From contig CAXXYH010000004.1 of the NCBI GenBank assembly GCA_963677925.2, forward strand, positions 2,112,001 to 2,176,000: 64,000 nucleotides of DNA, in the 5' to 3' direction. This DNA is from Spirochaetia bacterium. GTDB taxonomy: Bacteria > Spirochaetota > Spirochaetia > UBA9216. The notes under the pieces are model-generated. The model was not told where the DNA came from. It saw nothing but the letters and a program-made list of their open reading frames with translations, and ran no database searches. The translations under genes and the position numbers were made by a program. This document shows, in pieces, positions 677 through 61,314 of this stretch (the stretch's first letter is position 1; each line of letters starts with the position of its first letter).

Positions 677-691
677 ATTTTTTGAGTACAG

Positions 692-2457: not shown

Positions 2458-2603
2458 TCGGCTTTTAAAAACTTCAGTTTTTAATAGGCTACGATAACAA
2501 AGAGGAAGAAAGATTTGCAAATAGTTCCTCAGTACTTATTTACATGCGATTGTAAAATCTTTCTTCAGATGAAATAAAAAAAACAACCGGTTTTTTTATT
2601 TCA

Positions 2604-3860: not shown

Positions 3861-3934
3861 ATACAATTTAATATACTACAGATGAACAGTCTTTTCTATC
3901 ATACTTTTCAGAACTGTATTCATCCCTGTATACT

Positions 3935-27000: not shown

Positions 27001-27140
27001 AAGGCCTCCTCACATAAGCGGTATTGTGTTTGAACAAAAAGAAAGGAAAAGAATTTTTTTGACAGTAAATCCAATATTTATCTCCTCTAACCTTGCCCGG
27101 ATTCAAGAAGATACAGGATTTCCGTAACTCTGAAAAGTCA

Positions 27141-27317
27141 GGTGACTAGCTCCCCAGCGTACTTAAAGTAGCGCTGACAGTTTTGGAAGTATTAGCTTCC
27201 AAGCCCAGAAAACTGTTCTGCGGAAAACAGCCTCTTCGGCGGCATTACCTTTCGCTCAGCTTCTCGGGCGCCCGCGGCCTCAGCTGCCTACTAATTAACT
27301 GCCGCACCTCTATCACC
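27141..27317 (-). ncRNA. Lysine riboswitch (L-box)
   Basis: Minus strand reads AGAGGTGC..AGTA..GAAAGG..GCCGAA..TGGG..ACTGTCA..TGGGGAGCTA with P1 GGTGAT/GTCACC, directly upstream of dapB-dapA. Confidence 0.92.
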
Positions 27318-27337
27318 GGTGCAATCAATTTGTACTA

Positions 27338-34803: not shown

Positions 34804-34876
34804 GGGCCGCTAGCTCAGCTGGTAGAGCAACGCCCTTTTAAGGCGTGGGTCACAGGTTCGAACCCTGTGCGGCTCA
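34804..34876 (+). tRNA. tRNA-Lys(TTT)
   Basis: Cloverleaf GGGCCGC/GCGGCTC, anticodon arm ACGCC-CTTTTAA-GGCGT, GTTCGAAC T-loop. Confidence 0.96.
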
Positions 34877-34905
34877 AAAGCATTCGCTAGGTGAATGTTT
34901 AAATT

Positions 34906-34978
<73 letters not shown>

Positions 34979-34990
34979 AAATAATTATTA

Positions 34991-35022
34991 TTGGTAGGAT
35001 AAAGATTTACTTATCCTACCAA
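34991..35022 (+). terminator. Element-supplied hairpin after the reconstituted tRNA
   Basis: Perfect 12-bp inverted repeat TTGGTAGGATAA / TTATCCTACCAA; no T-tract on the plus strand. Confidence 0.5.
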
Positions 35023-35104
35023 CGAAACTACCGGACAACCGGCGTTTCTCTAAATCCAAGATACAGATAACTTACAGAAGAAAGTTATCTTAAGGAGTTA
35101 GACG

Positions 35105-36433
35105 ATGCGTCGGTTTTCTGTTTATAAACGTAGTAACAGTCCTTATTACTACTGTCAAATCAAAAATCCAAAAACAGGTAAATATCTTCCACCCAAAAGT
35201 ACAGGTAAGGTTGATGAGGATGAAGCTCTCCTTGTAGTTGCTGATTGGATCAAATATGGGATGCCTCAGAAGGGGCAGCGACGTAACTTTGAAGACATCT
35301 TCATGTTTAGCTCTTTCATGAGCTACGTAGAGAGCTCTACGATAACTGAGAAAGATGCCTCAAGGATTGTAAATGTTTTAAAGAATAAAGGCTTGATTGA
35401 ATCGGTTATATTTACAAGTGATGGCCCAGACACCCAACCTCTTATCCCTTTTTTGAAAACATTCTGGAATTTTGAGAAATCCCCATATGTTAAAGAAAAG
35501 CATAGCTATGGTCAAAAAATTGGTCAGAGGCACTGCTATGAGCAATCTAAGAGACTTTCTCACTGGGAAGAGTATTTTATTGACTTTAGAATTAAGGACG
35601 TTGACAAGCAAGCATTGAAGGAATTTCAATTCTATTTAAGTGAAAAAGGGTTAGCTCCAAAAACTATAAATCATGTTCTAAGTGCAGGTCTTACTGCGTT
35701 TAAATGGATGTATGAAGATGAGAAGATTAAAACAGATCCTGGACATGGTTTAAAGAAGTTTTCCGGGGAATCTGAATCACGTGGAATCTTAACAACAGAA
35801 GAAACTAAAAAGTTGTTTACACTTGAATGGAAAGATGAAAGGGCAAGAATAGGGAATTTAGTTGCATGTACGACAGGCTTAAGAGCAGGAGAGGTCCTGG
35901 CTATTAAACCTGAAAATATTGGTGATGATCTATTGTATGTGAAACATAGTTTTTCAAGGATTGAAGATCTTAAAGATACAAAGAACCACGAAGAGGGGAT
36001 AGTCCCTCTTGTTCCTATAGTCAGGGAAGAACTTTTGAAGCTATCTAAAAAGAATACCTTTGGGACGAACGGATATATTTTTTATTCTGAGTCTCCTGAT
36101 AAGCCAATGAGTCAAAATATTCTTCGTAGAGGTCTTGAGGATGCCCTGATAAAGCTTAGAGCAGGAAATAATCCTAATGAGGATCAATCAAAAGAAGCTA
36201 TTAAATATTGGGAAGAAAGGAATGTCCTTTTCCATTCTTGGCGTCATTATTATGCAACCCATCTTGCAGAGCGAGTTGATCTAAGAACAGCACAGATTGC
36301 CATGAGACACAAGACAGAGGCTATGACAAAGCATTATTCAAACCATGTGCAGACAGAGCGGATGAAAGAAATTGCCGCAGCGGTAGGGGATGCATTTGGA
36401 AACATTATTGAATTTTCGAGAAAAAGAGCATAG
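35105..36433 (+). CDS. Tyrosine recombinase/integrase
   Basis: TGLRAGE (R), DTK (K), FHSWRH (HxxR), RH..MTKHY (H, Y). Confidence 0.93.
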   Translation: MRRFSVYKRSNSPYYYCQIKNPKTGKYLPPKSTGKVDEDEALLVVADWIKYGMPQKGQRRNFEDIFMFSSFMSYVESSTITEKDASRIVNVLKNKGLIESVIFTSDGPDTQPLIPFLKTFWNFEKSPYVKEKHSYGQKIGQRHCYEQSKRLSHWEEYFIDFRIKDVDKQALKEFQFYLSEKGLAPKTINHVLSAGLTAFKWMYEDEKIKTDPGHGLKKFSGESESRGILTTEETKKLFTLEWKDERARIGNLVACTTGLRAGEVLAIKPENIGDDLLYVKHSFSRIEDLKDTKNHEEGIVPLVPIVREELLKLSKKNTFGTNGYIFYSESPDKPMSQNILRRGLEDALIKLRAGNNPNEDQSKEAIKYWEERNVLFHSWRHYYATHLAERVDLRTAQIAMRHKTEAMTKHYSNHVQTERMKEIAAAVGDAFGNIIEFSRKRA

Positions 36434-36529
36434 TACACTATATATGGTATGAAGGAGTGGGCATATGTGTATATATACACTATATATAATGACATATGTA
36501 AATATACATGGTACAATCTTATAGTAATC

Positions 36530-37054
36530 ATGGAAGATATAGATAAGAAAATTTATTTATCAGTAAATTTAGATAATTTGAAAAGAGTAACAGGGATGCC
36601 TTTTCGGTTGATGTCAAAGGCTTCAGGTATCCCTTGGACGGATTTTAGACGGTATATTAGTACTAATAGATTACCATTAAAGGTTGCTGTAAAACTCGAA
36701 ACTGTCTGTGTACGATACATCAATGCTCAAGATTTCTATTTACACCAAGGTGTTAAAAGTAATAGAGCATTACTTCTTTTAGAGAAGAATTGTAAAATGA
36801 GCTCTTGGTTTTCTCATGAGGAATGCGGTAATAAAATAGTTACTTTAGAAGCAGGCTTATTGAAAGCTAATGAAAAGATGAAAAGCGGAAATGCAAATGA
36901 ATTGGAAAAAATGTCCTTTTTAATCAATCAACATAGAGTTTCTTGTGAGTGGCAAATCCTAGGAGAATCTTGGGGTGAAGCTGAGTTTTCAGCATTTGCA
37001 GAAAGAGGGCTAAGAGCGCTTGATAGAAGAATTGAAGAAAGTATGTCTGATTAA
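36530..37054 (+). CDS. Hypothetical protein, possible N-terminal HTH
   Basis: ORF after int; likely start MEDIDKK; NLKRVTGMPFRLMSKASGIPW resembles an XRE-like HTH. Confidence 0.5.
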   Translation: MEDIDKKIYLSVNLDNLKRVTGMPFRLMSKASGIPWTDFRRYISTNRLPLKVAVKLETVCVRYINAQDFYLHQGVKSNRALLLLEKNCKMSSWFSHEECGNKIVTLEAGLLKANEKMKSGNANELEKMSFLINQHRVSCEWQILGESWGEAEFSAFAERGLRALDRRIEESMSD

Positions 37055-37223
37055 GACATAAGATAATATATCTTATCAGCACCAGGCACACCGAACTTCG
37101 GAAGTTGCCACACTGATAAGATAGGAAGTACACATTGTTGATGTAGTTGCTTCTAGAAGGTTGATAAGGTAGACCGGACTCCAAATTAAACTCCTGATTA
37201 CAGGGGCGGGGAGGTCTATCATT

Positions 37224-37451
37224 ATGACGATAGATTCACTCAATTTAGTTTCACATCTCTTAAATTACTCAGAATGCGCTGAGTATCTTGGTGTGAAAGA
37301 AACCACACTTAGAATCTGGGTTTCCCAAGGTAAGGTTCCGTATACCAAGATTGGACGAAGTGTAAGATTTACTTCCGAACAAGTAAATGAAATTCTCGAA
37401 AATGGCCGTCATGAGGCTACAGCGAGGTGTATCAATGAAAAAAATAATTGA
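37224..37451 (+). CDS. Excisionase-like HTH_17 DNA-binding protein
   Basis: LLNYSECAEYLGVKETTLRIWVSQGKVPYTKIGRSVRF; GGAGG RBS. Confidence 0.88.
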   Translation: MTIDSLNLVSHLLNYSECAEYLGVKETTLRIWVSQGKVPYTKIGRSVRFTSEQVNEILENGRHEATARCINEKNN

Positions 37452-37632
37452 TGCAGCCTTTAACTGGGTACTGAAACAAAAAGTTGAATATGGAGAAGTA
37501 ACTCTTAAATTTATTTTTCATGATGGACAACTTAGGCAAATCGAAAGGGATCTTAAGGAAAAGATACAAGTTTCTTATGAAAATAGATCGAACAACGTAA
37601 AGATCTGTAAAAAAGGGGGAACGCATGAATGA
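37435..37632 (+). CDS. Small protein (DUF2292/YezD-like)
   Basis: EYGEVTLKFIFHDGQLRQIER; GAGG RBS; overlaps both neighbours. Confidence 0.55.
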   Translation: MKKIIDAAFNWVLKQKVEYGEVTLKFIFHDGQLRQIERDLKEKIQVSYENRSNNVKICKKGGTHE

Positions 37633-38308
37633 ACTACCTAAGTATAGTCTATCCCCTAATAGGTTCGATGTGGATTATTTCTTAGAATACTGTAAGGATA
37701 AAGCCCTGACATTTAAAGAACTGATTGAACTGATCCCCCATTTTTCTTTTAAAACAGTGATTGATGAACACCATAATGGCCGGAAGAAAAAATATTCTGA
37801 GGAATTAGCCATTCAGTTTTGTATTCTATTATTTGAATATAAATCAATTTATCCGGTATTAGCGAAATTAAGCGTTAACAGGACAACTATTTGGAAGTGG
37901 AGACGCCTTTATATCGAGTTTGATAATATGTTCAGATTTACAATGAATTGTATTTTCATAAAAGAAGAAAAAAAACCTTATTCTCAGCATTATAAAAAGC
38001 AACAAAAAATCCACACTAATGCTTCACCGAAAAAAAAAGGTACAACTGGAGCTCAAACTAAGTATAAACCAGAATATAACAGATTCGTAAAATCCTCACT
38101 TAGTAAAACGGCAAAGACTTTAGGTGTTAGTAAAAGAACAATAGTTACATGGTGTAATAAGTATCCCGAATTTAAAATGGCCCAAACAATAAAAAGTGTT
38201 GAGAGAGCACTTCAATTATTGTGTATAGAAGTTGACAAACAAGAAAGAGTATATTCAGCATTTTTAAAATACTCTAAATTAAGAGAGGAGTTTACTGCGC
38301 ATGAGTAA
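37625..38308 (+). CDS. Tandem HTH protein resembling terminase small-subunit DNA-binding domains
   Basis: Two similar units: GRKKKYSEE..LSVNRTTIWKWRRLYIEF and GAQTKYKPEY..LGVSKRTIVTWCNKYPEF. Confidence 0.55.
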   Translation: MNELPKYSLSPNRFDVDYFLEYCKDKALTFKELIELIPHFSFKTVIDEHHNGRKKKYSEELAIQFCILLFEYKSIYPVLAKLSVNRTTIWKWRRLYIEFDNMFRFTMNCIFIKEEKKPYSQHYKKQQKIHTNASPKKKGTTGAQTKYKPEYNRFVKSSLSKTAKTLGVSKRTIVTWCNKYPEFKMAQTIKSVERALQLLCIEVDKQERVYSAFLKYSKLREEFTAHE

Positions 38309-39500
38309 TGACACAATTCAAATACTTGATTTGTTTAAAAACCGCCCTCTCGTGAATGGTATAGATTGTCTTTCATATAAGCAGTTATTAGAAAAAAAAG
38401 CTGAAAATAGTCATCAGCAAAGAAAAGACAAGAAACAGCCCCTTGCAGAGATACGAAACTTTAAGGAAATTCCACGAGAGGACATTAGTTGGCTTTGGCC
38501 TGGACGAATAGCACTTGGAAAATTATCTATGTTAGCTGGAGATCCAGGGATATCAAAAAGTCTTGTCACAATAGATATCGCAGCTCGACTTTCTAATAAT
38601 TCTAATTTCCCAGATGGTGTTCCTGCTCCTATAGGTGATACGATTTTTTTGAGTTTAGAGGATGATCCATCGGATACCATTAAACCAAGACTTGAAGCTG
38701 CGAAGGCCGATTTAGCCAGATGTCATTTTTTAGATAGTAAACTTGTTTTTAGCAATCAAGGAGCTGTAAAAAAAGAACTATTTACGTTAAGGGATCTTGA
38801 TGTTCTCTCTGATGCCTTAAATCAAATTCTCTCTGGAGGTGGAACACCTCTACTATTAGTTATTGATCCTATTGATAGTTTTCAGGTGGCTGTTGATTCA
38901 AATACCAATGATGTTAGAACCATGCTTGCACCAATAGCTGATTTTGCATCTAAACATAATATTGCTGTTCTTTTTATTAAGCATCTCAATAAAAACACAA
39001 AAAATTCAGTTGCATATAGAGTTAATGGTCATATCAGTTATACGGCAGTAACTAGATCAAGTTGGATTTTGTTAAAAGATCCAAAAGTTACTGATAAGCG
39101 TCTATTTTTATGTATCAAAAATAATATTGGCAAAGATAATAACGGATTATCGTATACTATAAAAGATGATGATACAGGGATTCCATATCTGGAATGGAAT
39201 AAAGATATAGAGGTCCGGACTCCTGATGAAATATTATCTGAAGTATATGGAGCAAGAAATAATTCTATTCAACGGGATCAGGTTCTTAAGTTCTTATCAA
39301 TGAATGGTAAAAGTAAAGCAAGTGAAATTGCTGCTTATATTGGTTCTTCATTATCTTCAACTTCGAATATTCTTAAGAAGATGCTCAGTAGTGGTGTGAT
39401 ATCTAACATTGGATATGGGGAATACGATATTTCACCACCTGAAAAAGCTGATAAAAGTGGTGAAAGTGATGAAAGTGATGAAACTCATAAAAGTAAATAA
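38301..39500 (+). CDS. AAA_25 / RepA-like SF4 helicase-ATPase with C-terminal winged helix
   Basis: WLWPGRIALGKLSMLAGDPGISKS (Walker A), LSLEDD, LLVIDP (Walker B), HLNK, KNN. Confidence 0.85.
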   Translation: MSNDTIQILDLFKNRPLVNGIDCLSYKQLLEKKAENSHQQRKDKKQPLAEIRNFKEIPREDISWLWPGRIALGKLSMLAGDPGISKSLVTIDIAARLSNNSNFPDGVPAPIGDTIFLSLEDDPSDTIKPRLEAAKADLARCHFLDSKLVFSNQGAVKKELFTLRDLDVLSDALNQILSGGGTPLLLVIDPIDSFQVAVDSNTNDVRTMLAPIADFASKHNIAVLFIKHLNKNTKNSVAYRVNGHISYTAVTRSSWILLKDPKVTDKRLFLCIKNNIGKDNNGLSYTIKDDDTGIPYLEWNKDIEVRTPDEILSEVYGARNNSIQRDQVLKFLSMNGKSKASEIAAYIGSSLSSTSNILKKMLSSGVISNIGYGEYDISPPEKADKSGESDESDETHKSK

Positions 39501-39660
39501 TTAATGGTTGGATGATTTAGCCGTAAACGTTATGTTTACGGCTAATTTACATACTTGTTAGACCAATTGGATAATATCCTAAATCTTTCCATTTCCAGTA
39601 TCAAAATCTGAATGTGAAAGTTGAATTATGAAGAAGTTTCATCACTTTCATCAGATTCAC
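39430..39660. repeat. Iteron-like direct and inverted repeats (candidate origin)
   Basis: 9-bp tandem GAAAGTGAT units; exact 18-bp inverted pair 39468-39485 / 39635-39652; 12-bp-arm palindrome 39517-39545. Confidence 0.6.
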
Positions 39661-39770
39661 TAGGCTTTAAATAAGTGAAATAAAAATTGGAAGTTGATAG
39701 CTAATTTCACAGGTACAGTGTAGATTAGGTTAATTCTTCTAATGTAAAGCGGTTTGAATAAATCGACGAA

Positions 39771-40355
39771 CTATAATCCATCAGTATCTATTTTCCCTTG
39801 TCTGAAGGTTAAAGCACGTTTTTGTGACATATAAGTGATTGACACTTGCCATTCTGAACTATGTGAGCTGTAATGTGCTGTTACACTAATAGTATCATCT
39901 TCAATCTCCCAAGTTGTTGTATAGAAGGAGGGTTTTCCTCTTAGTACTTCCTCTGTTAATTCTATTGTACCTGGTTTCAAATCGGGAAGAGCACTCCAAC
40001 TGGACTTTCCATAGACTCTATCTAATTTGTTACATAAGTCATAATATACATCAAAGCATTCGTAGGCATCTTTGGGATTACCAAGTTTTATCAAATACGT
40101 ACTATTAAAAAACTCCCGATCCGTGAATGCGAAAGTCATAGCTACATCATAACCTGCGACAGAATTATTCGAATATTCCAAAAGTGTGTAATCGCTTCCC
40201 TTTACGTTTTCTTCTCTGATTTTATCAGGTTGACCTTCTTGAGCTATAACATCTTCAGGAGATAAACCAAAAGAGAGGTTTCGAAATTTAAGTTCTTCTG
40301 AATAGGCAAAGGCTGTAGTTATTAAAATAATGCATACAAGTATTATTCTCCTCAT
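39771..40355 (-). CDS. Exported hypothetical protein
   Basis: Signal peptide, FRNLSFGLSPEDV N-terminus, AGGAG RBS. Confidence 0.7.
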   Translation of the reverse strand: MRRIILVCIILITTAFAYSEELKFRNLSFGLSPEDVIAQEGQPDKIREENVKGSDYTLLEYSNNSVAGYDVAMTFAFTDREFFNSTYLIKLGNPKDAYECFDVYYDLCNKLDRVYGKSSWSALPDLKPGTIELTEEVLRGKPSFYTTTWEIEDDTISVTAHYSSHSSEWQVSITYMSQKRALTFRQGKIDTDGL

Positions 40356-40526
40356 ATCAACTCCTGGTGATTAATTATCACGATCTGTAATTTCCTGTTT
40401 GAATTTACTCTGGTAAATGCAAAAACACAAGAGTAAATATGGCTTTTTAGACCAACTATATAGAATTATAGTTTCTTGGATTAGTAGTAAAACCCTATTA
40501 CGATGTACATCAATGGGGAAATAGTT

Positions 40527-40844
40527 ATGAGTGTACTACATCCGCTGTCTGTAAATTTAAAGAAATTACGGAAGCAAAATAATATGACACAAGCTATGCT
40601 TGCAGAGAAGATTGATGTAACCACTGCCTTTATAACTGATATTGAGATTCAGAAAAAATACCCCTCACTCAGAAATTTAGAAAAGATTGCCGATGTTTTT
40701 GGTGTTGAACCATTTGAGCTTATAATGCCGGAACAGCAGGCATTATCCTTGGAAGATAAAAAATATATATCAATGAAATATGCATCCCGAATACGAGAAT
40801 TAGCCGATGAGATTGAAAATGAATTGTCTGATTTAGACAATTAA
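40527..40844 (+). CDS. XRE-family HTH regulator
   Basis: NLKKLRKQNNMTQAMLAEKIDVT..IE..KYPSL..LEKIADVFGV. Confidence 0.9.
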   Translation: MSVLHPLSVNLKKLRKQNNMTQAMLAEKIDVTTAFITDIEIQKKYPSLRNLEKIADVFGVEPFELIMPEQQALSLEDKKYISMKYASRIRELADEIENELSDLDN

Positions 40845-41442
40845 CCGAAAACTTGAACTTTTTCATAAAGAATATACATTTTTTGTTTTATATTTTAGAA
40901 AATTATTTAGATGGTATAATTCAATATCTTTGCAATAGTTATATGTTTCCGAATGAATTTGCCACAAGTAAAAACGGTTTGATAACAGCCATTAATAAAT
41001 ATAATCAAAAATACAATATAGTTGCTTCTTTTTTGGTCTTTTGAGAACAATCTAATTTTTTTAATTCTTTTTCACGATTAGTAAATTTCATGCTATGATA
41101 CCCTTATTCTTTCATTGAAATTGACTCAAAAATGAAGGATTGCAGGTAAAAAAGATGTTAGCTACAAATAATAATCTTTGTGAAAGGGTATTATTATGAG
41201 GCGTTTTACAGAAGTAGGAAGATTTATTCAAAATTATTATTACTATTGTTCTCAAAATGAGTGTGATTTGATTACCTTCTATGATTTAATATTATTTGAA
41301 GGCCGCATGGTGCATGATAAATTAAACGACTGCCCTTATTTGGTTATATTTGATATGAATTTTATTGAATACTACCTTACGATATTTAAATATCTAATAA
41401 CAATTTTCATATTTCCCGAAAATAAGTATAGGTGTACTCTTG

Positions 41443-41991
41443 ATGGATAAAATTAATGTAACAGTTCTATTTAGTGGTGGAATAGATTCAACTGCATGTA
41501 TAAACATGTTTCATGGTAAACAGTATAAGATAAAACTTTTATATATTGACTATGGTCAAAAAAGTTGTGAGATGGAAAAGAAGACTGTTTTGAATATTGC
41601 CAATGAAATGAATCTTCCAATCTCAATTAGAAAATATTACAGTGAACATATATATTCAGTTGGAGAGATCCTTGGCAGAAACCTTTTTTTGTTGAGTGCT
41701 GCATTGTTAGAACAAACATCCGCTGGTCTTATTGCAATGGGGATACATGCAGGGACTAATTACTATGATTGTTCGATTGATTTTTTTAATCTTGCTTCGA
41801 GCCTCATCAGCAATTATAGCGCTGGCCAAATAGCTTTTGTAGCGCCCTTTATTGAATGGAATAAGAAAGAAATATGGGAATATTCCAAACTGAATAATTT
41901 AGATAGATATAAAACATATAGCTGCGAATTGGGGTTAATACAACCTTGTAAAAAATGTTTAAGCTGTAAAGATTTGGAGTTTTTAAAATGA
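41443..41991 (+). CDS. cap9: QueC-like protein (type IV CBASS Cap9)
   Basis: PP-loop SGGIDS, DYGQ, GRN, YYDC, Zn motif TYSC-x7-CKKCLSC; overlaps the TGT-like gene. Confidence 0.85.
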   Translation: MDKINVTVLFSGGIDSTACINMFHGKQYKIKLLYIDYGQKSCEMEKKTVLNIANEMNLPISIRKYYSEHIYSVGEILGRNLFLLSAALLEQTSAGLIAMGIHAGTNYYDCSIDFFNLASSLISNYSAGQIAFVAPFIEWNKKEIWEYSKLNNLDRYKTYSCELGLIQPCKKCLSCKDLEFLK

Positions 41992-43004
41992 TAGCTAGGA
42001 AATCTGTAATTTTCCATAAAGAGAGTGGAGTTAAAATTGATACTCCACTGTTAATCCCTTCATTTTCAAGTAAAGGGTTCGTCTTTGACAGTAAAGGTAA
42101 TAGTGAAATAAATAAGATTTATAAAACTTCTAGTGAATTCTTCACTAGAGCATGTTTGGTAAGTGCATATGATATTCATTACAATCATATTAAAGACCCT
42201 TTTAATTTTGAATCTATACCAGAAGTATTCTTTTTAGATAGTGGTGGCTATGAAGTCTCCGAGACAGATGATTTTTCAGCAGTAGTTCACACTCCTTCAC
42301 AGTCGAAAGAATGGAATAAAGAAAAATATCGGCAAGTTTTATCAGAATGGCCTGATGAATATCCAAGCGTCTTTATAAGTTATGATCATCCAGATGACAG
42401 AAAATCTTTAGAGGAACAATTAAAGTCGGCAGATGAAACCTTCAGTCAATATAAGAATAGATTGAGTTTATTTTTATTAAAACCTGAAAAGAATACAGAA
42501 CACACCTTGAAAAGTGTTTTAAAAAAGGTATATTCAAACATTGATTCTCTACGGGGTTTTGATATTATTGGTATAACTGAAAAAGAAATCGGCTCATCGA
42601 TTTTAGATCGGATGGAGAATATCGCGAGATTTAGAATAGCATTAGATGAAGCTTCAATCCAAACACCTTTACATATTTTTGGAGCATTAGATCCCATTAG
42701 TGTTTGCCTATATTTTCTTTCAGGTGCAGAAATCTTTGATGGATTAACATGGTTACGTTATTCTTACCATGAGAGTACTTGTATTTATCCTCATAACTAT
42801 GGATTTATTAATTTAGGTATTCAGGCAGACGAAAAAAGAATAAGGGTAAAAAGTGTTAGTCAAAATATAATCGAATTAGAAAATATTGAATATACTTTAA
42901 GAGAGTATTTAAATACTAAGAATTTTAAAAAATTTGGACTCCATGCAGATAAAATTGAACAAGCTTTAGATCGACTTGAAACTAAAGTGAAAGGAGTAAA
43001 ATGA
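41988..43004 (+). CDS. cap10: tRNA-guanine transglycosylase-like protein (type IV CBASS Cap10)
   Basis: TPLLIP, FLDSGGYE, LHIFG, IFDG TGT-barrel motifs; lacks the CxCxxC Zn site of housekeeping TGT. Confidence 0.8.
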   Translation: MIARKSVIFHKESGVKIDTPLLIPSFSSKGFVFDSKGNSEINKIYKTSSEFFTRACLVSAYDIHYNHIKDPFNFESIPEVFFLDSGGYEVSETDDFSAVVHTPSQSKEWNKEKYRQVLSEWPDEYPSVFISYDHPDDRKSLEEQLKSADETFSQYKNRLSLFLLKPEKNTEHTLKSVLKKVYSNIDSLRGFDIIGITEKEIGSSILDRMENIARFRIALDEASIQTPLHIFGALDPISVCLYFLSGAEIFDGLTWLRYSYHESTCIYPHNYGFINLGIQADEKRIRVKSVSQNIIELENIEYTLREYLNTKNFKKFGLHADKIEQALDRLETKVKGVK

Positions 43005-43939
43005 TGGGTGGATCAGGCAGTATTTGGGGTAGCATTGATCCTGCTACTGAGATTGAAAAAATAAGAAAGGCTGGAGAATCAAATTTGAATGCAGGAGTGG
43101 ATACAGAAGTAAATTCATTTCTTGCAAAACTACTAGTTGGATTTAATGATAGAGATGTTGAGACAATAAATTCGATTCTTGATGAAATAAAAAATGATTT
43201 AAAAGAAGTGATTTCTGATACTATAGATATTCTTTTTGGAGGGTCTATTCATAAAAATACTTATATTGAAGGATTAAGTGACATAGATTCTTTGATTTGC
43301 TTAGATAATCATATTTTTAAGGATAAATCACCCAATGAGGTTAAAAATATTCTTAAAGTTGAAATGGAAAAAAAATTCGGTAAAGAGAATGTAAAGGTTG
43401 GTAATCTTGCTGTTACTATCAATACCAAAGGATATGAAATTCAATTACTACCAGCTATTAAAGAGCATGATACTATAAAAATTAGTTCTTTCGATGGTAA
43501 TAATTGGTCTAGAATAAATCCAAAAAACTTCACAGATATCTTAACAAAAGTGAATAAAAGAAATAATGGCAATGTTATTCCGGTTATTAAATTGGTTAAA
43601 TCTATCATTAGTTCTCTTCCAGAACAACAACAATTAAGTGGGTATCATATAGAATCTTTAGCTGTGAATATCTTTAAGGATTACGATAATATTAAAACTT
43701 ATAAAGAAATGGTGAAGCATTTTTTTATAAGTGCAGTCAAAGAAGTAAAAGAGCCAATTTATGACAAATCAGGGCAATCTTTATTTGTAGATGATTATTT
43801 AGGTCCTTCTAATTCAATTAAGAGAAGGTTGATATCAATATCCCTTGATAGAATTGCTAGGAAAATTCGGAATTTAGATGGCTTAGATAATGGGAATTTA
43901 GTATTGGATACTTGGTCAAGGCTTCTGAATCATGAGTAA
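43004..43939 (+). CDS. cGAS/DncV-like nucleotidyltransferase (CD-NTase, SMODS)
   Basis: FGGSIHKNT..LSDID (GS..DxD), EIQLLPA, NPKNF, VIPVIKLVK, SGYHIE; Gly-rich N-terminus MGGSGS. Confidence 0.88.
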   Translation: MGGSGSIWGSIDPATEIEKIRKAGESNLNAGVDTEVNSFLAKLLVGFNDRDVETINSILDEIKNDLKEVISDTIDILFGGSIHKNTYIEGLSDIDSLICLDNHIFKDKSPNEVKNILKVEMEKKFGKENVKVGNLAVTINTKGYEIQLLPAIKEHDTIKISSFDGNNWSRINPKNFTDILTKVNKRNNGNVIPVIKLVKSIISSLPEQQQLSGYHIESLAVNIFKDYDNIKTYKEMVKHFFISAVKEVKEPIYDKSGQSLFVDDYLGPSNSIKRRLISISLDRIARKIRNLDGLDNGNLVLDTWSRLLNHE

Positions 43940-44480
43940 ATTAAAAGATGAAATAGATAGACAGTATAGGGTCATTGATATGATGATATCGATGCATTCG
44001 TTAGCACGGGATGATAAAAAGCTAAAAAGTAAAACATTAGATGTTACTTTACTTTTATTCTCAGTAATTACATGTGCTCTTCTCCTTTCGGAATACACGA
44101 TATCAACCATTTTGCCTGTGAATGAGAATTTCGTTGAAATCTGTACGGCGTTGTTCTCAATGATAGTCTTTTTTTTATCATTGTTAGAATACAAATTGGG
44201 TTGGAAAGAAGAAAGAGTTTTACACGATTCTGCAGTAAAAAAACTGAGTTTATTAAAAACGAGATATAGACAAGTTTATATTTCAGGAACAATCAATTTT
44301 AACCTTAACAGACTTTTTAATAGTGTTATGAAGAGTATTCATCCCATCCCGGAAAAAGATTTTTTAAAATATAAGGCTAAACATTTATACAAAATTGAAG
44401 TTAGTAAAGCGTTGTCAGGCAATCCAGGAATTTCGATAATTCTACTTAGATTGAAAATTAAATTAGGACTATATAATTGA
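43932..44480 (+). CDS. 2-TM SLATT-like CBASS membrane effector
   Basis: H..AR followed by two TM helices and a W.E...H motif; overlaps the CD-NTase stop. Confidence 0.7.
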   Translation: MSKLKDEIDRQYRVIDMMISMHSLARDDKKLKSKTLDVTLLLFSVITCALLLSEYTISTILPVNENFVEICTALFSMIVFFLSLLEYKLGWKEERVLHDSAVKKLSLLKTRYRQVYISGTINFNLNRLFNSVMKSIHPIPEKDFLKYKAKHLYKIEVSKALSGNPGISIILLRLKIKLGLYN

Positions 44481-45115
44481 AAGACTTAGAATATAGCATA
44501 ATTGAAAAATATTTAGAAATTAAGGAAACTGTAATAGCAAATGGTTATGAGTATGAAATTGAATGGCAGGAAGATATTAAAATTCAAGACATCAACGAGA
44601 ATGCATTTCTAAAAGAATATGTATGGGTTATTCTGTCTTCAGGTTTTAAAGAGCGTGTAGTTAGAAGGATATTCAAAGATATTTCCGAAATATTTAACTC
44701 ATGGTCAGAGATTTCATACTTAAATACAATTAAAGATAACTGCAAAGATGCCGCATTACGAGTTTTTAATAATAAAAGTAAAATAGATAGCATTTGTGAA
44801 ATGATTGACTATATTGATAAAAATGGTTTTGAAGAATTAGAGTATAATATTTATAAAAGCAATGTTGATTTTTTTTATAAATTTAAATATATCGGTCCGA
44901 TTACTGTAATACATCTATTTAAGAACTTAGGTATTTCTGTAGTCAAACCTGACCGCCATTTGATAAAGATATCAAATGCATTAGGTGTTAATTCACCTAA
45001 TGATTTATGCAATTTAGTTGCCCAATTCACGGGAGATGATCTAAAAGTAATTGATTTGATCCTATGGAGATGGGCTACTATAGTTCCAAACTATATCAAT
45101 CTTTTAAAAAAATAA
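44477..45115 (+). CDS. cap11: HhH N-glycosylase/DNA-lyase (OGG-like, type IV CBASS Cap11)
   Basis: EYVWVILSSG, NKSK, HhH FKYIGPIT..HL, KPDRHL, DLILW. Confidence 0.78.
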   Translation: MKDLEYSIIEKYLEIKETVIANGYEYEIEWQEDIKIQDINENAFLKEYVWVILSSGFKERVVRRIFKDISEIFNSWSEISYLNTIKDNCKDAALRVFNNKSKIDSICEMIDYIDKNGFEELEYNIYKSNVDFFYKFKYIGPITVIHLFKNLGISVVKPDRHLIKISNALGVNSPNDLCNLVAQFTGDDLKVIDLILWRWATIVPNYINLLKK

Positions 45116-45294
45116 TTTGGATTTAAAGGCATATACAAGAATCTTAATATTAAGGTGTAAATATAGTTTATTAATTGGTTTGCTAAGTGTTATCAGATTT
45201 GAAAAATGTTAAAGGTAGTCAAATCATAGGGTCAGCTAGGCACATTATGACCAGAATGGTGAATTGATTAGGTTATTATGTAAAAGAGGGAAAA

Positions 45295-47634
45295 ATGTTA
45301 GAAATTGTGAGTGGTTTAGGTATTGGGTTAGGTAAAGTATTTGCAAAATATTTAATAGAAAAATTTAATAAAAATAATTCAAATCTAAGGTCATTAATTG
45401 CAAATGAAATTATTGATACCTTAAAACCAATAAAAGTTAAAGAAGATAATGTGATAACTACATCTACTGACAAAGTATTAGTAGTGATATCACATACTAA
45501 CATTTCTGAAAACACGAAGAAGGCTATTCTTGTTGAAGTAATTTCACTTTTATCAAGAGTGAATACTGAAATGTCATATCTATCAAAATTTTTTTTTAAT
45601 CCTCATCTATATGCTGCGGAAATTAAGAAAATGAGCAGTTCAAATATTTCAATGTTTTCTAAAGATGAAATTTATATTTTTGATCAAATGGTTTTTATAG
45701 CTTGTGAATCAATCATGAAAATATCAGAGAGTTTCTCAGGTTTTTTACATTACTCTGTCAGATCAATTTTTCAAAATCAGTCCGACATCCATAATGAGAT
45801 AAAGAAAATAGGAGCAAATATTAAATTATTAGAAGAATATATACTAAATGATGAATATCTCACCTCTGACTCATTCGAGATGAAATATAAAGAATTTTTA
45901 CAGACTAAATATAATAAATTCGAACCATTCGGTTTAAGAATATACGATATGATTTTTGAAAGTATAAAATTAACTGATGCATTCACAGAGCTTGATTTAA
46001 AAATATCTATCGATATTGATATGGGCAAAGATAATATAGAAAATAGAAATGATGAATTTATTAAATTATATATAGATGAAGATAACGAATTTATTAAATA
46101 CTATATTGAGGATAATAAAGGATTATTTAAAATTGAAAAGACATTAGATGGAAAAAAGCTTACTGGTCAGTCTAAAAATGATGAGGATAATAATCGTGAA
46201 TTAATTAAAAAGGATCATGATGGTGAATTTATTGAATTACCAAAATTTCAATTAGAAAATATCATTCATAATTTACTTGATGACAATTCTCAGAGGAAAT
46301 ATAAAAAGCAAGTTTTGACAATCAATGAGATATTACCTAACGAAAGGCGATTAATGATAGTTGGTCTGCCTGGTTCTGGGAAATCAACATTATTACAATG
46401 GCTAGTTGTAAATATCTCATCATTGAAGAATGAAAATAAGATAAAATACTGGGGAGATTCTATTCCCTTTTTTATTCGGTTAAGATCTTGTTAAAATGGA
46501 AAGTTCCCGCCTCCTGAGGAATGGTTAAGTTTAGAAGCAAAGAATATTCAATCATTGATGCCAAAGAATTGGATTCATAATTTAATGGGGAAAGGTAGAG
46601 TTGCATTATTCATCGATGGTATTGATGAAATTAGTCCAAGCGCTAGAGAATCTTTATTAAAAGAATTATCTGAATTAGTCCAACTATATCCATTATTAAG
46701 ATTAGTTATAACTTCACGTCCTACCGCTGTTGATAATCGTAGTTGGCCTGAATGGAATGTTTGGTTGTTAAAAGAAGGATTTCTTAAAGCATCAATTAAC
46801 GAGTATACAAAAGAACAAATAAATAGTTTTATTCATTCTTGGCACAAAACTCTTGCGAATTCAGTCAGTAATAAGGAGAATAATGATAAGTTGTTAAGTA
46901 ATGCAGATTCCTTAATCAGTATATTGAATGAACGTAGTGACCTGAGTAGATTGGCGACAAATCCATTGTTATGCTCTATGATATCTGCAATATTTTATGT
47001 AAAAGATGGCGAGTTGCCTGAAAATAGAATTGAGTTATATCAAAACTGTATTGAAGTACTACTTGAGAGTCGGGATAATAAACGTGAAATTGATTTGTCA
47101 CACTTTAAGTTATTTAAAAGTATAAATAATAAAATTCTATTAGTTCAATACTTGTCGTATTGGATGATGGATAATGGTAAAGTTGACTTGACCAAAGAAG
47201 AAATAATACAATGCTTTTTACATCGGTTGCCTATTTCAGGCATATCTAATGATGAAATTAATAATATTTTTGATTACTTTATTGAAAGAAGTGGTTTGTT
47301 GACTGAATATATGACAAACAGGTATATTTTTATTCATTTAACTTTCCAAGAATACTTTGCAGCTTTAGAAGGTCTGTATGCATACAACATTGGCTCATTA
47401 GCTCAAAAGGTAATGTTTGACCATTGGCATGAAGTGATAAAATTAACCATTGGAGTAGCTAGACCACATGAACGTAAGGAACTTGTCACAAAGATAATAG
47501 ATGTAGGTATGATGAGTCCATCAAAAGAAACCAAAATGATAATCTCTAATGTATTAGAACAATCATTGGAGATATGTTTAGATAAAAATGAAAGACTTAT
47601 TCGTGATGTTGAATATTATAAAAATAGTTTTTAG
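45295..47634 (+). pseudogene. NACHT (NLR-like) NTPase interrupted by in-frame TAA at 46492-46494
   Basis: Both ORFs are in the same frame; Walker A GLPGSGKS and PFFIRLR precede the stop; FIDGIDE, ITSRP, NPLL and FIHLTFQEYFAA follow; the gap reads NGKFPPPEEWL.. Confidence 0.85.
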
Positions 47635-47998
47635 AGTGATTCACTCTCGGGAGAGATAAATATTTTAAATTGGAATTGAATATAGGGTGATGAAGTATCT
47701 AATTTTATTAGACATAGGAAATAGTATCTGTAATAACCAGAAAACATCGTTATAGAGAAATTTAACGATAGGACCCTATTGTGCTGTTTTGAAAGATACC
47801 TATGGTTGAACAATTACTGATGGAGGTTTGTCTGAATCGAGTAATGAAATTCACAGATAAAAGTTACAGATAGAACCCGGAAAATGGGTCAATATAGAAA
47901 AATACTCATATACGATCATAAACAAACTCTTGAAATATCTCTTTTCATCATCTACACTTGTTTACATAGAGAAATGTCGGGATACACGGTGGACCGCT

Positions 47999-48040
47999 TT
48001 TTCATCCCGGCAACAGGGGTTCAACTCCCCTAGGAGATGC
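47999..48040 (+). repeat. attR core (displaced 3' half of tRNA-Glu)
   Basis: Exact 42-bp copy of attL, here continuing to CCA at 48040-48042. Confidence 0.95.
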
Positions 48041-48048
48041 CAAATATT

Positions 48049-48083
48049 AAGGACTGTTTCTTGACGGAAACAGTCCTTTTTTT
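48049..48083 (+). terminator. Original tRNA operon terminator
   Basis: AAGGACTGTTTC / GAAACAGTCCTT stem with T-tract immediately after attR. Confidence 0.85.
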
Positions 48084-48159: not shown

Positions 48160-50277
48160 GTGAAGTTTAAGAGCAAATTATTTTTTTCATTTTCAACTAA
48201 ACTGATTCTGGTATTCATCCTGCTGTTAAGTATATCAAGCCTCATTACAGGTCTAACTGCTTATCTTGTAGCCAGAAATGAACTCAACAGAAAAGGCAGC
48301 CAGGTTTTAAAAAACAGTGTGGTTCAGGCTCTTGATCTTATAGAGTCCGAGCATGAGCGGTTTATCTCCGCTAACTATTCACTGGATGCTTTACAGGAGC
48401 ATATTAAAGAAATCCTCATGGGGCCTTTAGATCCGCAGCTGGGTACCCGAACACTTCACCATCGCATTGATCTTGGAGCAAATGGTTATTTTATAATCTA
48501 TAATTCTAAGGGCGATGAAATCATGCATCCTACACTTGAGGGGCAGAATGTAATTGATGTAACCAGTTTTGATGATGATGAAAGATTTCTGGTACAGGAT
48601 CAGATTGATGCAGGTAAATCCGGGGGTGGTTTTACCTACTATTCCTGGATGCTTCCGCATTCAACCAGGATCGCCAGGAAAATATCCTACAGCCAATACT
48701 ACGAGCCATGGGACTGGATAGTTGTTGCTACTGCATACGAAATTGATTTTAACAGAGGCGCTGCAGTAATTCTTCTGGCGATCGTTATTACTATGCTGCT
48801 TTTAATTCTCTCTGTATCTTTTCTTATCGTAAAATTCATCCGGGGCGTCACAACTCCAATTTATAAGATAGTTGACGGATTTGGAAAGGTTGCTGTAAAT
48901 AAGCTTGAAGCTGTCGAAAATAATCTCCGTCGGGATGAGATAGGAATGTTGGTCGACGGATATAATCACATGATCAGCGCACTTCAGGAAGCAGAATCAA
49001 ATATTGCGGATAAGGAAGATTATATAAAATTTCTGGCCTTTCATGATGATCTCACAGGACTGCCAAATCGTCACGGAATTGAAGAGCACATCTCCGGAAG
49101 AATAAAAACCGGATGTAACACCGCTTATATGGTTCAGGCTGATATATGGGGGCTGAAGATAATAAATTCGGCACTGGGATACAAACAGGGAGACATGCTT
49201 CTGCAGGTAATAGGGGAGTACTTTTTAAAATCAGATAATTCAGATTTATACCTTGCAAGAACAAGCAGTAATGAATTCACAATGTGGGTAGAAAACAGGA
49301 ATCATAAGGAAATATCAGATCTTGTCTATGATTTAAGAAAATCTGTAAAAGAATATATCAATAAGAGCGGTTACGGACGCCTTGTTAATATGCATCTTGC
49401 CATGACAACATACCCGCTCGACGGCAGTACTTTCAGTGAGCTTTATGAAAAAACCTGTATAGCGCTTAAAACAGCAAAAGATGAAAATTCTTTAAAACTC
49501 AAAGAATATCATGATGATTTTAAGGAAAATATCGAGAATGAACTTTCAATGAGGAAGTATCTTACAAAAGCTCTTGAAGAGGATGAAATAAGAGCTTTTT
49601 ACCAGGCCCAGATGGATATAACGACCGGAACCGTGGCAGGCGTTGAGGCTCTTGCACGCTGGGAATCCAAAGAGTTGGGCTATGTTCCTCCGTCAATTTT
49701 TATTCCTGCTATAAGCAGCCAAAATCTTGTAAATGAATTCAGTATCTATATGATTGATAAGGTCCTTGGTGATTATTCCGCGTTGAAGCAGAAATACAAC
49801 GATGACATCAGTGTTTCAATTAATATTTCTCCATCCTATTTTATGGATAAGGGCTTTCTGGATAATCTTAATACAAGACTGAAAAAATATTCAATTCCGG
49901 CTGAAAAACTCACATTGGAAATAACAGAAGATGTTTTTATATCGGATATCGATAAGATTAACAGTATAATCAGTCAGCTGCATAACATGGGGGTCAGAAT
50001 ATCAATTGATGACTTCGGAACAGGTTATTCGTCATTAAATTATCTGACAAAGATGAATTTTGATGAGATGAAGATAGATAAAAGTTTTATAAATAAGATA
50101 ATAGAGGAACCGAAATCCATGGAGCTTTTTAAAGTTCTGTGCCAGATAGCTGAAATATATGATTATGAAATAGTTGCGGAAGGGGTAGAGACTGAGCTTC
50201 AGCTTGATATGATAAAAACTACACCTCTTAAAATTGTACAGGGATATCTTTTTTCAAAGCCGGAACCTCTGCAATAA
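48160..50277 (+). CDS. Cache-HAMP-GGDEF(degenerate)-EAL c-di-GMP phosphodiesterase
   Basis: Two TMs around a Cache domain, DDLTGLPNR, SSNEF in place of GGDEF, EALARW, DDFGTGYSS, AEGVET. Confidence 0.9.
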   Translation: MKFKSKLFFSFSTKLILVFILLLSISSLITGLTAYLVARNELNRKGSQVLKNSVVQALDLIESEHERFISANYSLDALQEHIKEILMGPLDPQLGTRTLHHRIDLGANGYFIIYNSKGDEIMHPTLEGQNVIDVTSFDDDERFLVQDQIDAGKSGGGFTYYSWMLPHSTRIARKISYSQYYEPWDWIVVATAYEIDFNRGAAVILLAIVITMLLLILSVSFLIVKFIRGVTTPIYKIVDGFGKVAVNKLEAVENNLRRDEIGMLVDGYNHMISALQEAESNIADKEDYIKFLAFHDDLTGLPNRHGIEEHISGRIKTGCNTAYMVQADIWGLKIINSALGYKQGDMLLQVIGEYFLKSDNSDLYLARTSSNEFTMWVENRNHKEISDLVYDLRKSVKEYINKSGYGRLVNMHLAMTTYPLDGSTFSELYEKTCIALKTAKDENSLKLKEYHDDFKENIENELSMRKYLTKALEEDEIRAFYQAQMDITTGTVAGVEALARWESKELGYVPPSIFIPAISSQNLVNEFSIYMIDKVLGDYSALKQKYNDDISVSINISPSYFMDKGFLDNLNTRLKKYSIPAEKLTLEITEDVFISDIDKINSIISQLHNMGVRISIDDFGTGYSSLNYLTKMNFDEMKIDKSFINKIIEEPKSMELFKVLCQIAEIYDYEIVAEGVETELQLDMIKTTPLKIVQGYLFSKPEPLQ

Positions 50278-55951: not shown

Positions 55952-57489
<1,538 letters not shown>

Positions 57490-57761
57490 CAATGTGAAAG
57501 GAACGTGACTAAGTCTGAAAACTTCGGTTTAAAACTTAGCTTAGAGTTTGTTTACAAACTTTAACGCTTTAATAGTCATGGAAAAACAGCCTGTTAGGCA
57601 AAAAACAACGCAGTGAAGTTCAGTTTACTGAACTTCCGAGATGCAGCTTGCTGCATCTCCGCTCTCTTTCTTCCTTTTTTATATTAAGTGAAGGTCAACT
57701 GGTTTTACTCGCTTGGAGATTTACCATGTAAAGCTCTGGAGGAAATCTTTGATTTTCTTTC

Positions 57762-57835
57762 GGGGGTATAGCTCAGCTGGCTAGAGCGGTGGCTTTGCAA
57801 GCCATAGGTCTGGGGTTCGAATCCCCATACCTCCA
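57762..57835 (+). tRNA. tRNA-Ala(TGC)
   Basis: GGGGGTA/TACCTCC acceptor with G3:U70, anticodon arm GTGGC-TTTGCAA-GCCAT. Confidence 0.96.
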
Positions 57836-58070
57836 ATAGATATTTAACCGGTAACGGTTTGATATATTAAAGTCCTTTTTGTAGGGCTTTAAGACATAGT
57901 CTCCATAGAGAGATTTAAGTTTGGCATTGTCAAACTTAAGAGAATACGGAATTAAGAATTCAGTATTCTCCGTTCTTTAAAATAGATAAAGACTGTTGAA
58001 AGATTACAGTTTTGAAAACTTATCCATATAACAGGGAGTGGATAAGTATAGGGAAGGGTTAAGAGGTAAT

Positions 58071-61061
<2,991 letters not shown>

Positions 61062-61202
61062 ATTTCCCCTTAATCAATTCCCGGAGAATTGAGCCAATAG
61101 GCTGCATGGACTAAGAAGTCCTGTGAATAGCAACCTATCGTGCCCAAACTCAATCCCTGTTCATTCTGCAATAGCAGGATGTAAGAATAATTTTGAATAA
61201 TT

Positions 61203-61295
<93 letters not shown>

Positions 61296-61314
<19 letters not shown>

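Follow-up and report, generated by a model that had tools for sequence, protein, structure and literature searches.

An apparently intact type IV CBASS cassette on a tRNA-Glu island of a spirochaete with no evident source of the nucleobase that would prime it

Introduction

How would a bacterium that seems unable to make 7-carboxy-7-deazaguanine (CDG) use an anti-phage system whose published mechanism begins with that compound? The question is raised by a five-gene cassette at 41443-45115 of a 64,000-nt stretch of contig CAXXYH010000004.1 from a Spirochaetia bacterium (hereafter the window, to which all coordinates refer unless a genome handle is given). An initial annotation of this DNA read the cassette as an anti-phage signalling system based on cyclic oligonucleotides (CBASS), of type IV, apparently intact and carried by a mobile element in a spirochaete. 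The system class and its mechanism are already published: in the Rhizobiales system, the QueC-like enzyme Cap9 ligates CDG, the product of QueE (Wassarman et al., 10.1101/2025.04.06.647259). Table S1 of that work covers 49 operons. Here we conclude, with a probability of roughly 0.85, that the window carries an intact type IV anti-phage cassette as cargo of a 13.06-kb, integrase-bearing island inserted at a tRNA-Glu gene of a spirochaete chromosome, and we examine what its genomic setting implies for whether and how it would be armed.

Results

Five overlapping genes form a complete type IV cassette

Five open reading frames (ORFs) on the + strand follow one another with overlapping stops and starts (41440/41443-41991, 41988-43004, 43001/43004-43939, 43932-44480 and 44477-45115), and every motif named for this run in the initial annotation is found in the translations. 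In order, they encode Cap9, a QueC-like ATP-dependent ligase (41443-41991; PADLOC QueC, 5.5e-59; Cap9 of Protein Data Bank (PDB) entry 9NTO, 4.7e-40); Cap10, a TGT-like barrel (41988-43004; PADLOC TGT, 4.3e-112; Cap10 of 9NTN, 5.6e-65); a CdnD-type cGAS/DncV-like nucleotidyltransferase (CD-NTase) that is the predicted signal synthase (43004-43939; PADLOC Cyclase PDLC00790, 1.4e-108; CdnD of 9NTN, 2.5e-58); an effector with two transmembrane (2TM) segments that resembles SLATT proteins (43932-44480; PADLOC 2TM Effector PDLC00681, 2e-32; hydropathy and an AlphaFold2 model); and Cap11, a glycosylase-fold protein of the Ogg2-like HhH-GPD type that begins with TTG (44477-45115; PADLOC OGG, 3.3e-71; AlphaFold2 and VIA-align).

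All five component models of PADLOC thus match, with E-values from 2e-32 to 4e-112 that place the motif set far beyond chance, and the matches cover almost the entire length of each profile (proteins of 182, 338, 311, 182 and 212 aa versus profiles of 190, 326, 310, 199 and 215). The nucleotidyltransferase was tested for grouping with non-signalling enzymes and instead groups with CBASS cyclases in PADLOC, NCBIfam and the PDB: the runner-up PADLOC cyclase model reaches 5.4e-29, as against 1.4e-108 for PDLC00790; the NCBIfam equivalog NF041117 (CBASS_cyclase_b) gives 244.1 bits against a 200-bit cut-off; and the closest solved chain is CdnD. Pfam recognizes QueC in Cap9 (3.1e-25) and SMODS in the CD-NTase (1.3e-11), places SLATT_4 in the effector below threshold, and has no match for the TGT-like and OGG-like proteins, a silence that is as expected for diverged CBASS accessories.

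The type assignment made initially holds, because five family models match, catalytic residues are kept relative to solved references (below) and the gene order recurs elsewhere; the description of the cassette as apparently intact is borne out by full-length ORFs in which the catalytic residues are present. As judged from its predicted proteins, the cassette is thus a true type IV CBASS, complete and to all appearance intact, whose optional parts are Cap11 and an effector of the 2TM kind. An 84-aa ORF immediately upstream (41196-41450) was considered as a further component and set aside; it has no family match, is found at 0/80 related loci and is probably a non-coding leader.

Cap9, Cap10 and the cyclase keep the published catalytic residues

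Residue positions follow the numbering of the Rhizobiales reference proteins, counted along the alignments; this numbering was taken as valid because the published interface residues E38, D42, D45 and D65 fall on matching letters of the reference chain (E, D, D and D). Cap9 contains FSGGIDS and four C-terminal cysteines (C..C..C..C), and in its alignment with 9NTO_B (4.7e-40) S18, D22, S23, R86, Y115, D117 and the four zinc-binding cysteines are all conserved. At 182 aa it is close to the family median of ~185 aa stated in PMC13329287, and it scores 71 bits against the NCBIfam QueC equivalog, whose cut-off is 150.3.

In Cap10, the DSGG and FDG motifs are present. There are three cysteines in total and no CxCxxC, and hence no TGT-type zinc site, in agreement with the statement in 10.1101/2025.04.06.647259 that Cap10 lacks this site. 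Alignment with 9NTN_A (5.6e-65) shows conservation of D73 and S74 (in DSGG), D122, K154, H226 and D248 (in FDG), and when 25 homologues are aligned none of these columns varies; D73 and D248 correspond to D84 and D251 of the window protein. Among PDB chains, no tRNA- or DNA-transglycosylase matched Cap10 at E<=0.01, and the top solved relative was Cap10 itself. The CD-NTase has the motif GGS...DID, and D94 and D96 of the solved CdnD (9NTN_G, 2.5e-58) align with the two aspartates of D-I-D.

The second of two adjacent ATG codons probably starts the cyclase

The longest ORF of the CD-NTase begins with two consecutive ATG codons (43001 and 43004), that is, with Met-Met, and only initiation at 43004 yields the N-terminus MGGSGS. 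In the reference work, type IV cyclases start M(G/S)G(G/S)GG, Met1 is cleaved and Gly2 takes the nucleobase (10.1101/2025.04.06.647259); methionine is removed only ahead of small residues, according to PMC13279940, so a Met-Met start would retain its first methionine. A Shine-Dalgarno-like AAAGGAG at 42990-42996 lies 7 nt upstream of the ATG at 43004 and 4 nt upstream of that at 43001. The MGGSGS N-terminus, the 7-nt spacing and the rule for methionine removal make initiation at the second ATG likely; the acceptor N-terminus would be present provided that this codon is used. Starts of the M[GS]G type occur in 68/78 related CD-NTase ORFs, and exactly MGGSGS in six, including that of the nearest relative. 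The choice at 43001-43006 decides whether the Gly2 acceptor would be exposed, and automatic annotation may pick the wrong ATG.

Cap11 is a sister family of Ogg2

A single-sequence search of the PDB with Cap11 returned nothing under E 0.27, and the relationship to Ogg2 surfaced only by profile and fold searches. The AlphaFold2 model (mean predicted local distance difference test score, pLDDT, 95.7) matches Ogg2-type 8-oxoguanine glycosylases over its full length in Foldseek (template-modelling score 0.60, probability 1.0, E 4.5e-3 to 9e-3). VIA-align gives Z-scores of 15.1, 14.9 and 14.6 to the Tm, Mj and Ss Ogg proteins over 179-184 aligned residues, with HhH-GPD glycosylases in 50/50 listed rows. 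Similarly, a profile built from 25 Cap11 sequences retrieves an 8-oxoguanine glycosylase chain of the Ogg2-like type (9O02/9O00) at 7.9e-5.

Cap11 contains an HhH-like hairpin (IGPIT...KNLG) followed by KPDRH and keeps the catalytic aspartate of D-R-H (D159). Ile142, however, occupies the position of the Ogg2 lysine (Ser in the deposited variant 9O02), and K149 and K157 are invariant in the Cap11 family. With the fold and the aspartate kept and isoleucine at the Schiff-base position, Cap11 falls outside the definition of an Ogg2 glycosylase/lyase; it is a sister family of Ogg2 and not an Ogg2, which suggests, on residue grounds, a monofunctional or otherwise altered glycosylase. This status is compatible with the proposal that Cap11 reverses transfer of the modification termed NDG, and Cap11 is optional, being present in ~1/3 of type IV systems (10.1101/2025.04.06.647259).

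The effector is a helical protein with two hydrophobic segments

The hydrophobic segments of the effector span residues ~36-58 and ~67-88, with a six-residue loop assigned between them, and its N- and C-terminal parts are basic. Its AlphaFold2 model is helical throughout (pLDDT 93.4). Foldseek found no related fold in the PDB at E<=0.001 (best 0.37), and in a wide VIA-align search the best Z-score, 10.5, was to BAR-domain and coiled-coil hairpins, below the level that is meaningful for helical proteins and with residues 141-182 barely covered. W91, F144, K148, K154 and S158 are invariant across 24 homologues and are candidates for signal binding.

The gene cluster recurs across phyla

Clustering of the same genes in other genomes was assessed around Cap10. 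A large protein set contains 2037 Cap10 homologues at E<=1e-10, the nearest at 66% identity and the others at <=53%, and scanning a single genome from each species gave 170 relatives, of which 80 were used as related loci. By record title, these derive from Acidobacteriota, Nitrospirota, Bacteroidota, Proteobacteria, Planctomycetota and Cyanobacteria, plus three archaeal metagenome-assembled genomes (MAGs). With neighbours scored by tblastn using the window proteins (E<=1e-5), Cap9 is matched at 80/80 loci, the cyclase at 78/80 (the two misses, L075 and L078, are contigs that are cut), Cap11 at 74/80 and the 2TM effector at 48/80. Gene order and strand are as in the window, apart from one inverted Cap11. 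The genes therefore co-occur in order in 78-80 of 80 related loci, and since the nucleotidyltransferase also groups with CBASS cyclases, the type IV reading stands. By contrast with this conserved core, the upstream helix-turn-helix (HTH) gene, the 84-aa ORF and the downstream NACHT gene each accompany the cassette at 0/80 loci.

Identity to Cap10 proteins outside the host family is 35-46%. No Cap10 match was found in 50,697 phage records, and 17 plasmid records match, four of them with >=80% coverage; the top one, at 43.8% identity, is on a Pseudanabaena plasmid (NZ_AP017561.1, 66481-67473), where it is annotated 'hypothetical protein' and adjoins a gene labelled '7-cyano-7-deazaguanine synthase', probably a Cap9 misnamed as QueC. 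Remote Cap10-like matches (21-23% identity) on Rhizobium and Agrobacterium plasmids (H5-H15) coincide with genes whose annotation is TIR-domain protein, which agrees with the description, in 10.64898/2025.12.03.692087, of Thoeris-like operons with cap9, cap10 and cap11.

The cassette is rare among spirochaetes

The host genome (5.04 Mb in four contigs, 99.63% complete) has four matches to FlaA, the sheath protein of periplasmic flagella (best 246.8 bits), as against 0/14 control genomes, and belongs to the same family as a MAG recorded as 'Spirochaetia bacterium', so the spirochaete assignment made at the outset is upheld. In an even sample of Spirochaetota, Cap10 was found in 1/401 genomes, the host itself (1/336 high-quality genomes; 0/400 others), and 1/10 other genomes of the host family has the cassette (G457, a single 5.2-Mb contig). 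G457 is taken to be the same genome as G001, because its QueC-family match has identical coordinates, score and E-value. No spirochaete CBASS was found in the literature by title or abstract among the matches listed, and we agree with the earlier suggestion that the signal nucleotide of the spirochaete system may be undescribed.

That second family member (OY776510.1, 'MAG: Spirochaetia bacterium'; locus L018) provides the nearest relative of all five proteins, with identities of 59% for Cap9, 65% for Cap10, 61% for CdnD, 57% for the 2TM effector and 55% for Cap11. The two cassettes share gene order, the MGGSGS start and a patch of low GC content, and this genome, too, is without canonical QueC or a QueE-like gene. 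They differ in surroundings: no backbone gene of the window island (integrase, excisionase, AAA_25, HTH or NACHT) lies within 6 kb on either side of the relative. A backbone common to this or any other related locus was sought and not found; there are two weak excisionase matches, in L042 and L045.

A 13-kb island is inserted at tRNA-Glu

The integration target is tRNA-Glu(UUC) at 34906-34978 (+ strand; ARAGORN and Rfam tRNA), which follows tRNA-Lys in a pair at 34804-34978 (ARAGORN). A 57-nt direct repeat of its 3' part forms attL (34931-34987), and a partial tRNA-Glu 3' copy, with a terminator hairpin just beyond it, forms attR (47993-48049); the two were located by repeat search and by alignment with the empty site described below, are 91% identical and lie 13,062 nt apart. 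GC content drops from ~0.44 in the flanks to ~0.30 at 36-48 kb (0.317 for the island).

Just inside attL is a tyrosine integrase gene (35105-36433, +; PHROG phrog_1, 1.7e-36; Pfam Phage_integrase, 4.3e-14), followed on the same strand by an excisionase-like HTH gene (37224-37451; phrog_66, 3.8e-10; phrog_1840, 4.5e-9; Pfam HTH_17, 3.9e-11), a gene for an HTH protein that weakly resembles small terminases (37625-38308; phrog_309, 1.7e-7; in Pfam, HTH_23 only) and a gene for an AAA_25 ATPase, similar to RepA and primase-helicases, with a C-terminal winged HTH (38301-39500; Pfam AAA_25, 2.2e-22; PHROG primase/helicase, 1e-6 to 1e-8), which is likely the island's replication protein. A Cro/cI-type HTH regulator (40503-40844, +; Pfam HTH_3, 3.1e-15; PADLOC HTH_VI, 2.6e-14, and capH, 9.9e-10) could be the island repressor or a regulator of the cassette, and is treated here as an island regulator. 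Regulation of the CapH/CapP type was considered for this gene and rejected, as the capH match is one of numerous unspecific HTH matches, CapP is absent and the gene is found at 0/80 related loci. The island also contains a signal-peptide-like ORF on the - strand.

Downstream of Cap11 lies a second cargo gene, for a STAND NTPase of the NACHT type (45295-47634, +; 780 codons in single-frame translation, with weak NACHT matches in both halves). It contains one in-frame TAA (46492-46494) between the Walker A (GLPGSGKS) and Walker B (LFIDGIDE) motifs and has probably become a pseudogene only lately, the intact product being a STAND protein of the defence type.

In a same-genus genome that is 98% complete (G451), similarity to the left flank (90% identity) stops at tRNA-Glu, the right flank's initial 36 bases stand directly after tRNA-Glu, and the terminator hairpin of the attR side adjoins the tRNA gene: this arrangement is the empty integration site. 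Integrase, excisionase, tRNA-Glu att repeats, the GC drop and this empty site together substantiate the earlier call of a mobile element. Its further description as satellite-like is plausible, given the integrase, the excisionase, the weakly terminase-like HTH and the AAA_25 ATPase: traits of phage-inducible chromosomal islands are present (integrase, excisionase, HTH regulator, AAA_25 replication-like ATPase, att site and 13.06-kb length), the small-terminase match is a weak one (61 residues, 1.7e-7) and neither capsid nor packaging genes nor a helper phage are known.

Beyond the empty site, G451 has ~5 kb that is not in the window, between the tRNA-Glu terminator and a GGDEF-EAL gene (L109, G451:C4:178700-184100, 476-5144), with three genes, two of which encode PKD domains. 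A defence hotspot at tRNA-Glu was considered and dropped, because this 5 kb encodes PKD-domain proteins and has no PADLOC match. In contig set X1, one contig of 13,080 nt corresponds exactly to 34949-48028; sets X2 and X3 contain tRNA-like or short fragments only. No joint across the island was seen, and none of these contigs bears on expression or excision. Farther out, a gene for a membrane sensor (48160-50277), in whose translation a GGDEF-type motif (LTGLPNRHG, not an exact GGDEF) and an EAL-like one (EITE) can be read, starts ~110 nt past attR, a complete rRNA operon (16S, tRNA-Ala, 23S and 5S; 55952-61313 and 57762-57835) lies 8 kb downstream of the island, and there is a lysine riboswitch at 27138-27320 (- strand; 94.8 bits).

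Most type IV hosts appear able to make CDG

A census of QueC covered the first 50 of the 80 type IV host genomes: 33/50 have a canonical full-length QueC, 16/50 only Cap9-like matches, and 1/50 is ambiguous. QueE was then scored with five models at E<=1e-15 in the 17 hosts without clear QueC and in eight QueC-positive controls. A QueE-like gene was found in 6/8 controls, so the sensitivity of the search is imperfect, and in 11/17 hosts without clear QueC; the six without a match are G001, G002, G003, G019, G027 and G035, and G001 and G003 are recorded as single chromosomes. Hence, most type IV CBASS hosts are able to make CDG, as far as gene content indicates, and the two spirochaete hosts apparently are not.

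The 11 hosts with a QueE-like gene and no canonical QueC (G006, G015, G021, G023, G028, G036, G037, G039, G040, G045 and G050) include seven Bacteroidota by record title, and in G021 and G050 QueE has a housekeeping context beside a PorE-like gene. In these hosts, most of the CDG might be used by Cap9; alternatively, a QueC escaped the search or the MAGs have gaps. In the searchable literature we found no paper that ties deazaguanylation to QueE other than as pathway background; the version published in Science, or the supplements, may address this point.

The window host has Tgt and no recognizable QueE

The host genome has FolE, one Tgt and one QueD-like gene (TIGR03367, 94.9 bits versus a cut-off of 89.25). 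The last (G000:C3:959447-959791; L003 1489-1923, - strand), with a CxxxHGH motif, sits between a DNA methyltransferase gene and murE; this orphan may serve pterin or folate metabolism. QueE models make weak cross-matches in the host to NrdG, MoaA, two glycyl-radical activases and two SPASM maturases, and the recurrent top cross-match is NrdG, beside NrdD (174.8 bits to NrdG2). Near nrdD and nrdG is a gene for a dGTP triphosphohydrolase-like protein (L005 2133-3074, -; G000:C3), which scores 90.5 bits against the 400-bit cut-off for anti-phage dGTPases and is probably a housekeeping gene. Canonical QueC is found in 1/30 of the host's relatives. QueE and QueC models were positive on E. coli in control searches, and in a tblastx control all eight QueE-bearing segments taken from other hosts, QueC being present on three of them as well, detect one another.

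Discussion

What was computed here is which genes are present, in what order and how intact, which residues are conserved, where the island ends and what its empty site looks like; every biochemical step in the following model is carried over by homology from the Rhizobiales system. The CD-NTase would be translated from the ATG at 43004 and lose Met1. Cap9, with ATP, would then ligate CDG to the amine of Gly2 to give the NDG modification, and the TGT-like pocket of Cap10 could clamp the modified tail, holding the cyclase inactive and poised for transfer via an aspartate nucleophile, D251. Upon infection, the cyclase would make a cyclic oligonucleotide that activates the 2TM effector, and the ensuing membrane damage would abort the infection.

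Several observations weigh against an intact and working cassette in this host. The charged clamp between helix alpha1 of Cap10 and CdnD is not conserved in charge: E38, D42, D45 and D65 of Cap10 become K, E, T and N, and R15, S18 and R22 of CdnD become A, I and R, so this contact, if kept, would be made in another way. The acceptor tail has serine at position 6, where the published motif has glycine. Promoter-like (sigma-70-like) sites show no excess at 40300-45400 (30 versus 31.3 in shuffles). The same scan, uninformative overall, found no + strand terminator 3' of Cap11; terminator-like sites number four versus 1.3 in shuffles, and the sole + strand one lies inside Cap10 (42128-42150). Given the stop codon in the NACHT cargo, the island may be decaying. 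Finally, the only QueC-family gene in the 99.63%-complete genome is Cap9, none of the five NCBIfam models finds QueE over its cut-off, and tblastx with the eight QueE-bearing segments gave nothing in the host genome at E<=1e-3. With no QueE, and no QueC besides Cap9, there is no evident source of the published Cap9 substrate, and without a recognizable endogenous route arming must depend on an outside or unrecognized source of CDG. Because the missing supply is a matter of host context, it lowers the claim that the system is active here and leaves membership in type IV as it was.

This mismatch invites other explanations. One is that the cassette is intact in sequence yet idle, the cyclase staying unarmed for want of QueE and CDG in cargo of a recent and already decaying island. 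The gene content of the near-complete host and the scarcity of canonical QueC in its relatives would fit, as would the in-frame TAA in the adjoining NACHT gene and an island GC of ~0.31 against ~0.44 in the host, which suggests recent arrival; moreover, deletion of Cap9 abolished both NDG and defence in the reference system (10.1101/2025.04.06.647259). Five full-length ORFs with every catalytic residue intact are not what such idleness would predict, however, and an intact relative at 55-65% identity in another genome from this QueE-less family argues for use, not drift. The same deletion also raised toxicity (10.1101/2025.04.06.647259), so that selection might act against an unarmed system, and CDG could be taken up from the surroundings. 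We regard an idle cassette as unlikely, although it is the rival that we take most seriously. More doubtful still is that the host makes CDG through a QueE too divergent, or too unrelated, for our models, so that the system works as published. FolE and the QueD-like gene are present, an orphan QueD wants explaining, and the models missed QueE in two of the eight controls. Nevertheless, that QueD-like gene is away from que genes and could have a role in folate or pterin metabolism, each of the six weak cross-matches to radical-SAM proteins is better assigned otherwise, and diverse QueE sequences that match each other match nothing in this genome. The lack of QueC in relatives also fits a lineage that salvages queuosine and has Tgt only.

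A different kind of alternative would deny that the genes are CBASS at all and take the QueC-, TGT- and OGG-like proteins as a 7-deazaguanine island for modification or restriction of nucleic acids, either Dpd-like or tRNA-modifying. Superfamily membership of the three proteins and the '7-cyano-7-deazaguanine synthase' label next to the Pseudanabaena Cap10 could be read in this way. Yet Cap10 has neither a Pfam TGT match nor the zinc cysteines and finds its closest solved chain in Cap10 (5.6e-65), Cap9 reaches less than half of the QueC equivalog cut-off, the genes are translationally coupled to the CD-NTase and 2TM effector in a cluster seen at 78/80 loci, and DpdB-K are absent, the sole PADLOC Dpd match being that of the NACHT-gene P-loop to DpdH (0.0011). 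On the Cap10 and Cap9 scores, the absent zinc site and gene co-occurrence, we reject this identity as scarcely credible.

The type IV cassette that we favour is best compared with the Rhizobiales system (Cap9-Cap10-CdnD-Cap11; 9NTO for Cap9-CdnD and 9NTN for Cap10-CdnD; 10.1101/2025.04.06.647259). The two share the same five functions, Cap11 included, and the window keeps the Gly-rich cyclase tail and every catalytic or ligand residue named for Cap9, Cap10 and CdnD. They are separated by sequence divergence (alignment E-values of 4.7e-40 to 5.6e-65), by loss of the charged Cap10 alpha1/CdnD clamp and by MGGSGS in place of MGGSGG. In addition, the reference system was tested in E. coli, whereas the window host is without QueE and QueC and carries its cassette on a tRNA-Glu island.

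Other systems offer narrower parallels. In type II CBASS, as drawn in 10.1101/2025.04.06.647259, accessory enzymes likewise prime the cyclase covalently and a further enzyme reverses the step, but the modification is a C-terminal adenylate or conjugate made through the ubiquitin-like chemistry of Cap2 and Cap3 rather than an N-terminal nucleobase, and the window cassette has no Cap2 or Cap3. In QatABCD, the QueC-family protein QatC modifies QatB, which has an MG.. N-terminus, and QatC has threonine at the positions of the CDG-reading Y115 and D117, as described in PMC13279940; the Cap9 of the window keeps Y and D and is paired with a CD-NTase instead of QatA, QatB and QatD. With the Ogg2 family (MjOgg, 3KNT; SsOgg, 3FHG; TmOgg, 3N0U; and 9O00), Cap11 shares a full-length fold and the D-R-H aspartate, and differs by Ile142 at the lysine position.

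There are implications for how such systems might be used. In hosts unable to make CDG (the window genome, its relative G001 and, of the 25 tested for QueE, at most four others), arming could occur only with CDG from outside, for example when an infecting phage brings FolE-QueD-QueE to modify its DNA with 7-deazaguanine. The cassette would in that case sense, conditionally, an anti-restriction pathway of the phage and not be a constitutively primed defence. We offer this as a long shot.

More broadly, the locus adds a rare spirochaete instance of type IV CBASS, with clean island borders and an empty site for comparison. It sets a mechanism that needs CDG against a lineage without QueE and QueC, so that the dependence of priming on the 7-deazaguanine pathway of the host, or of another organism, becomes testable.

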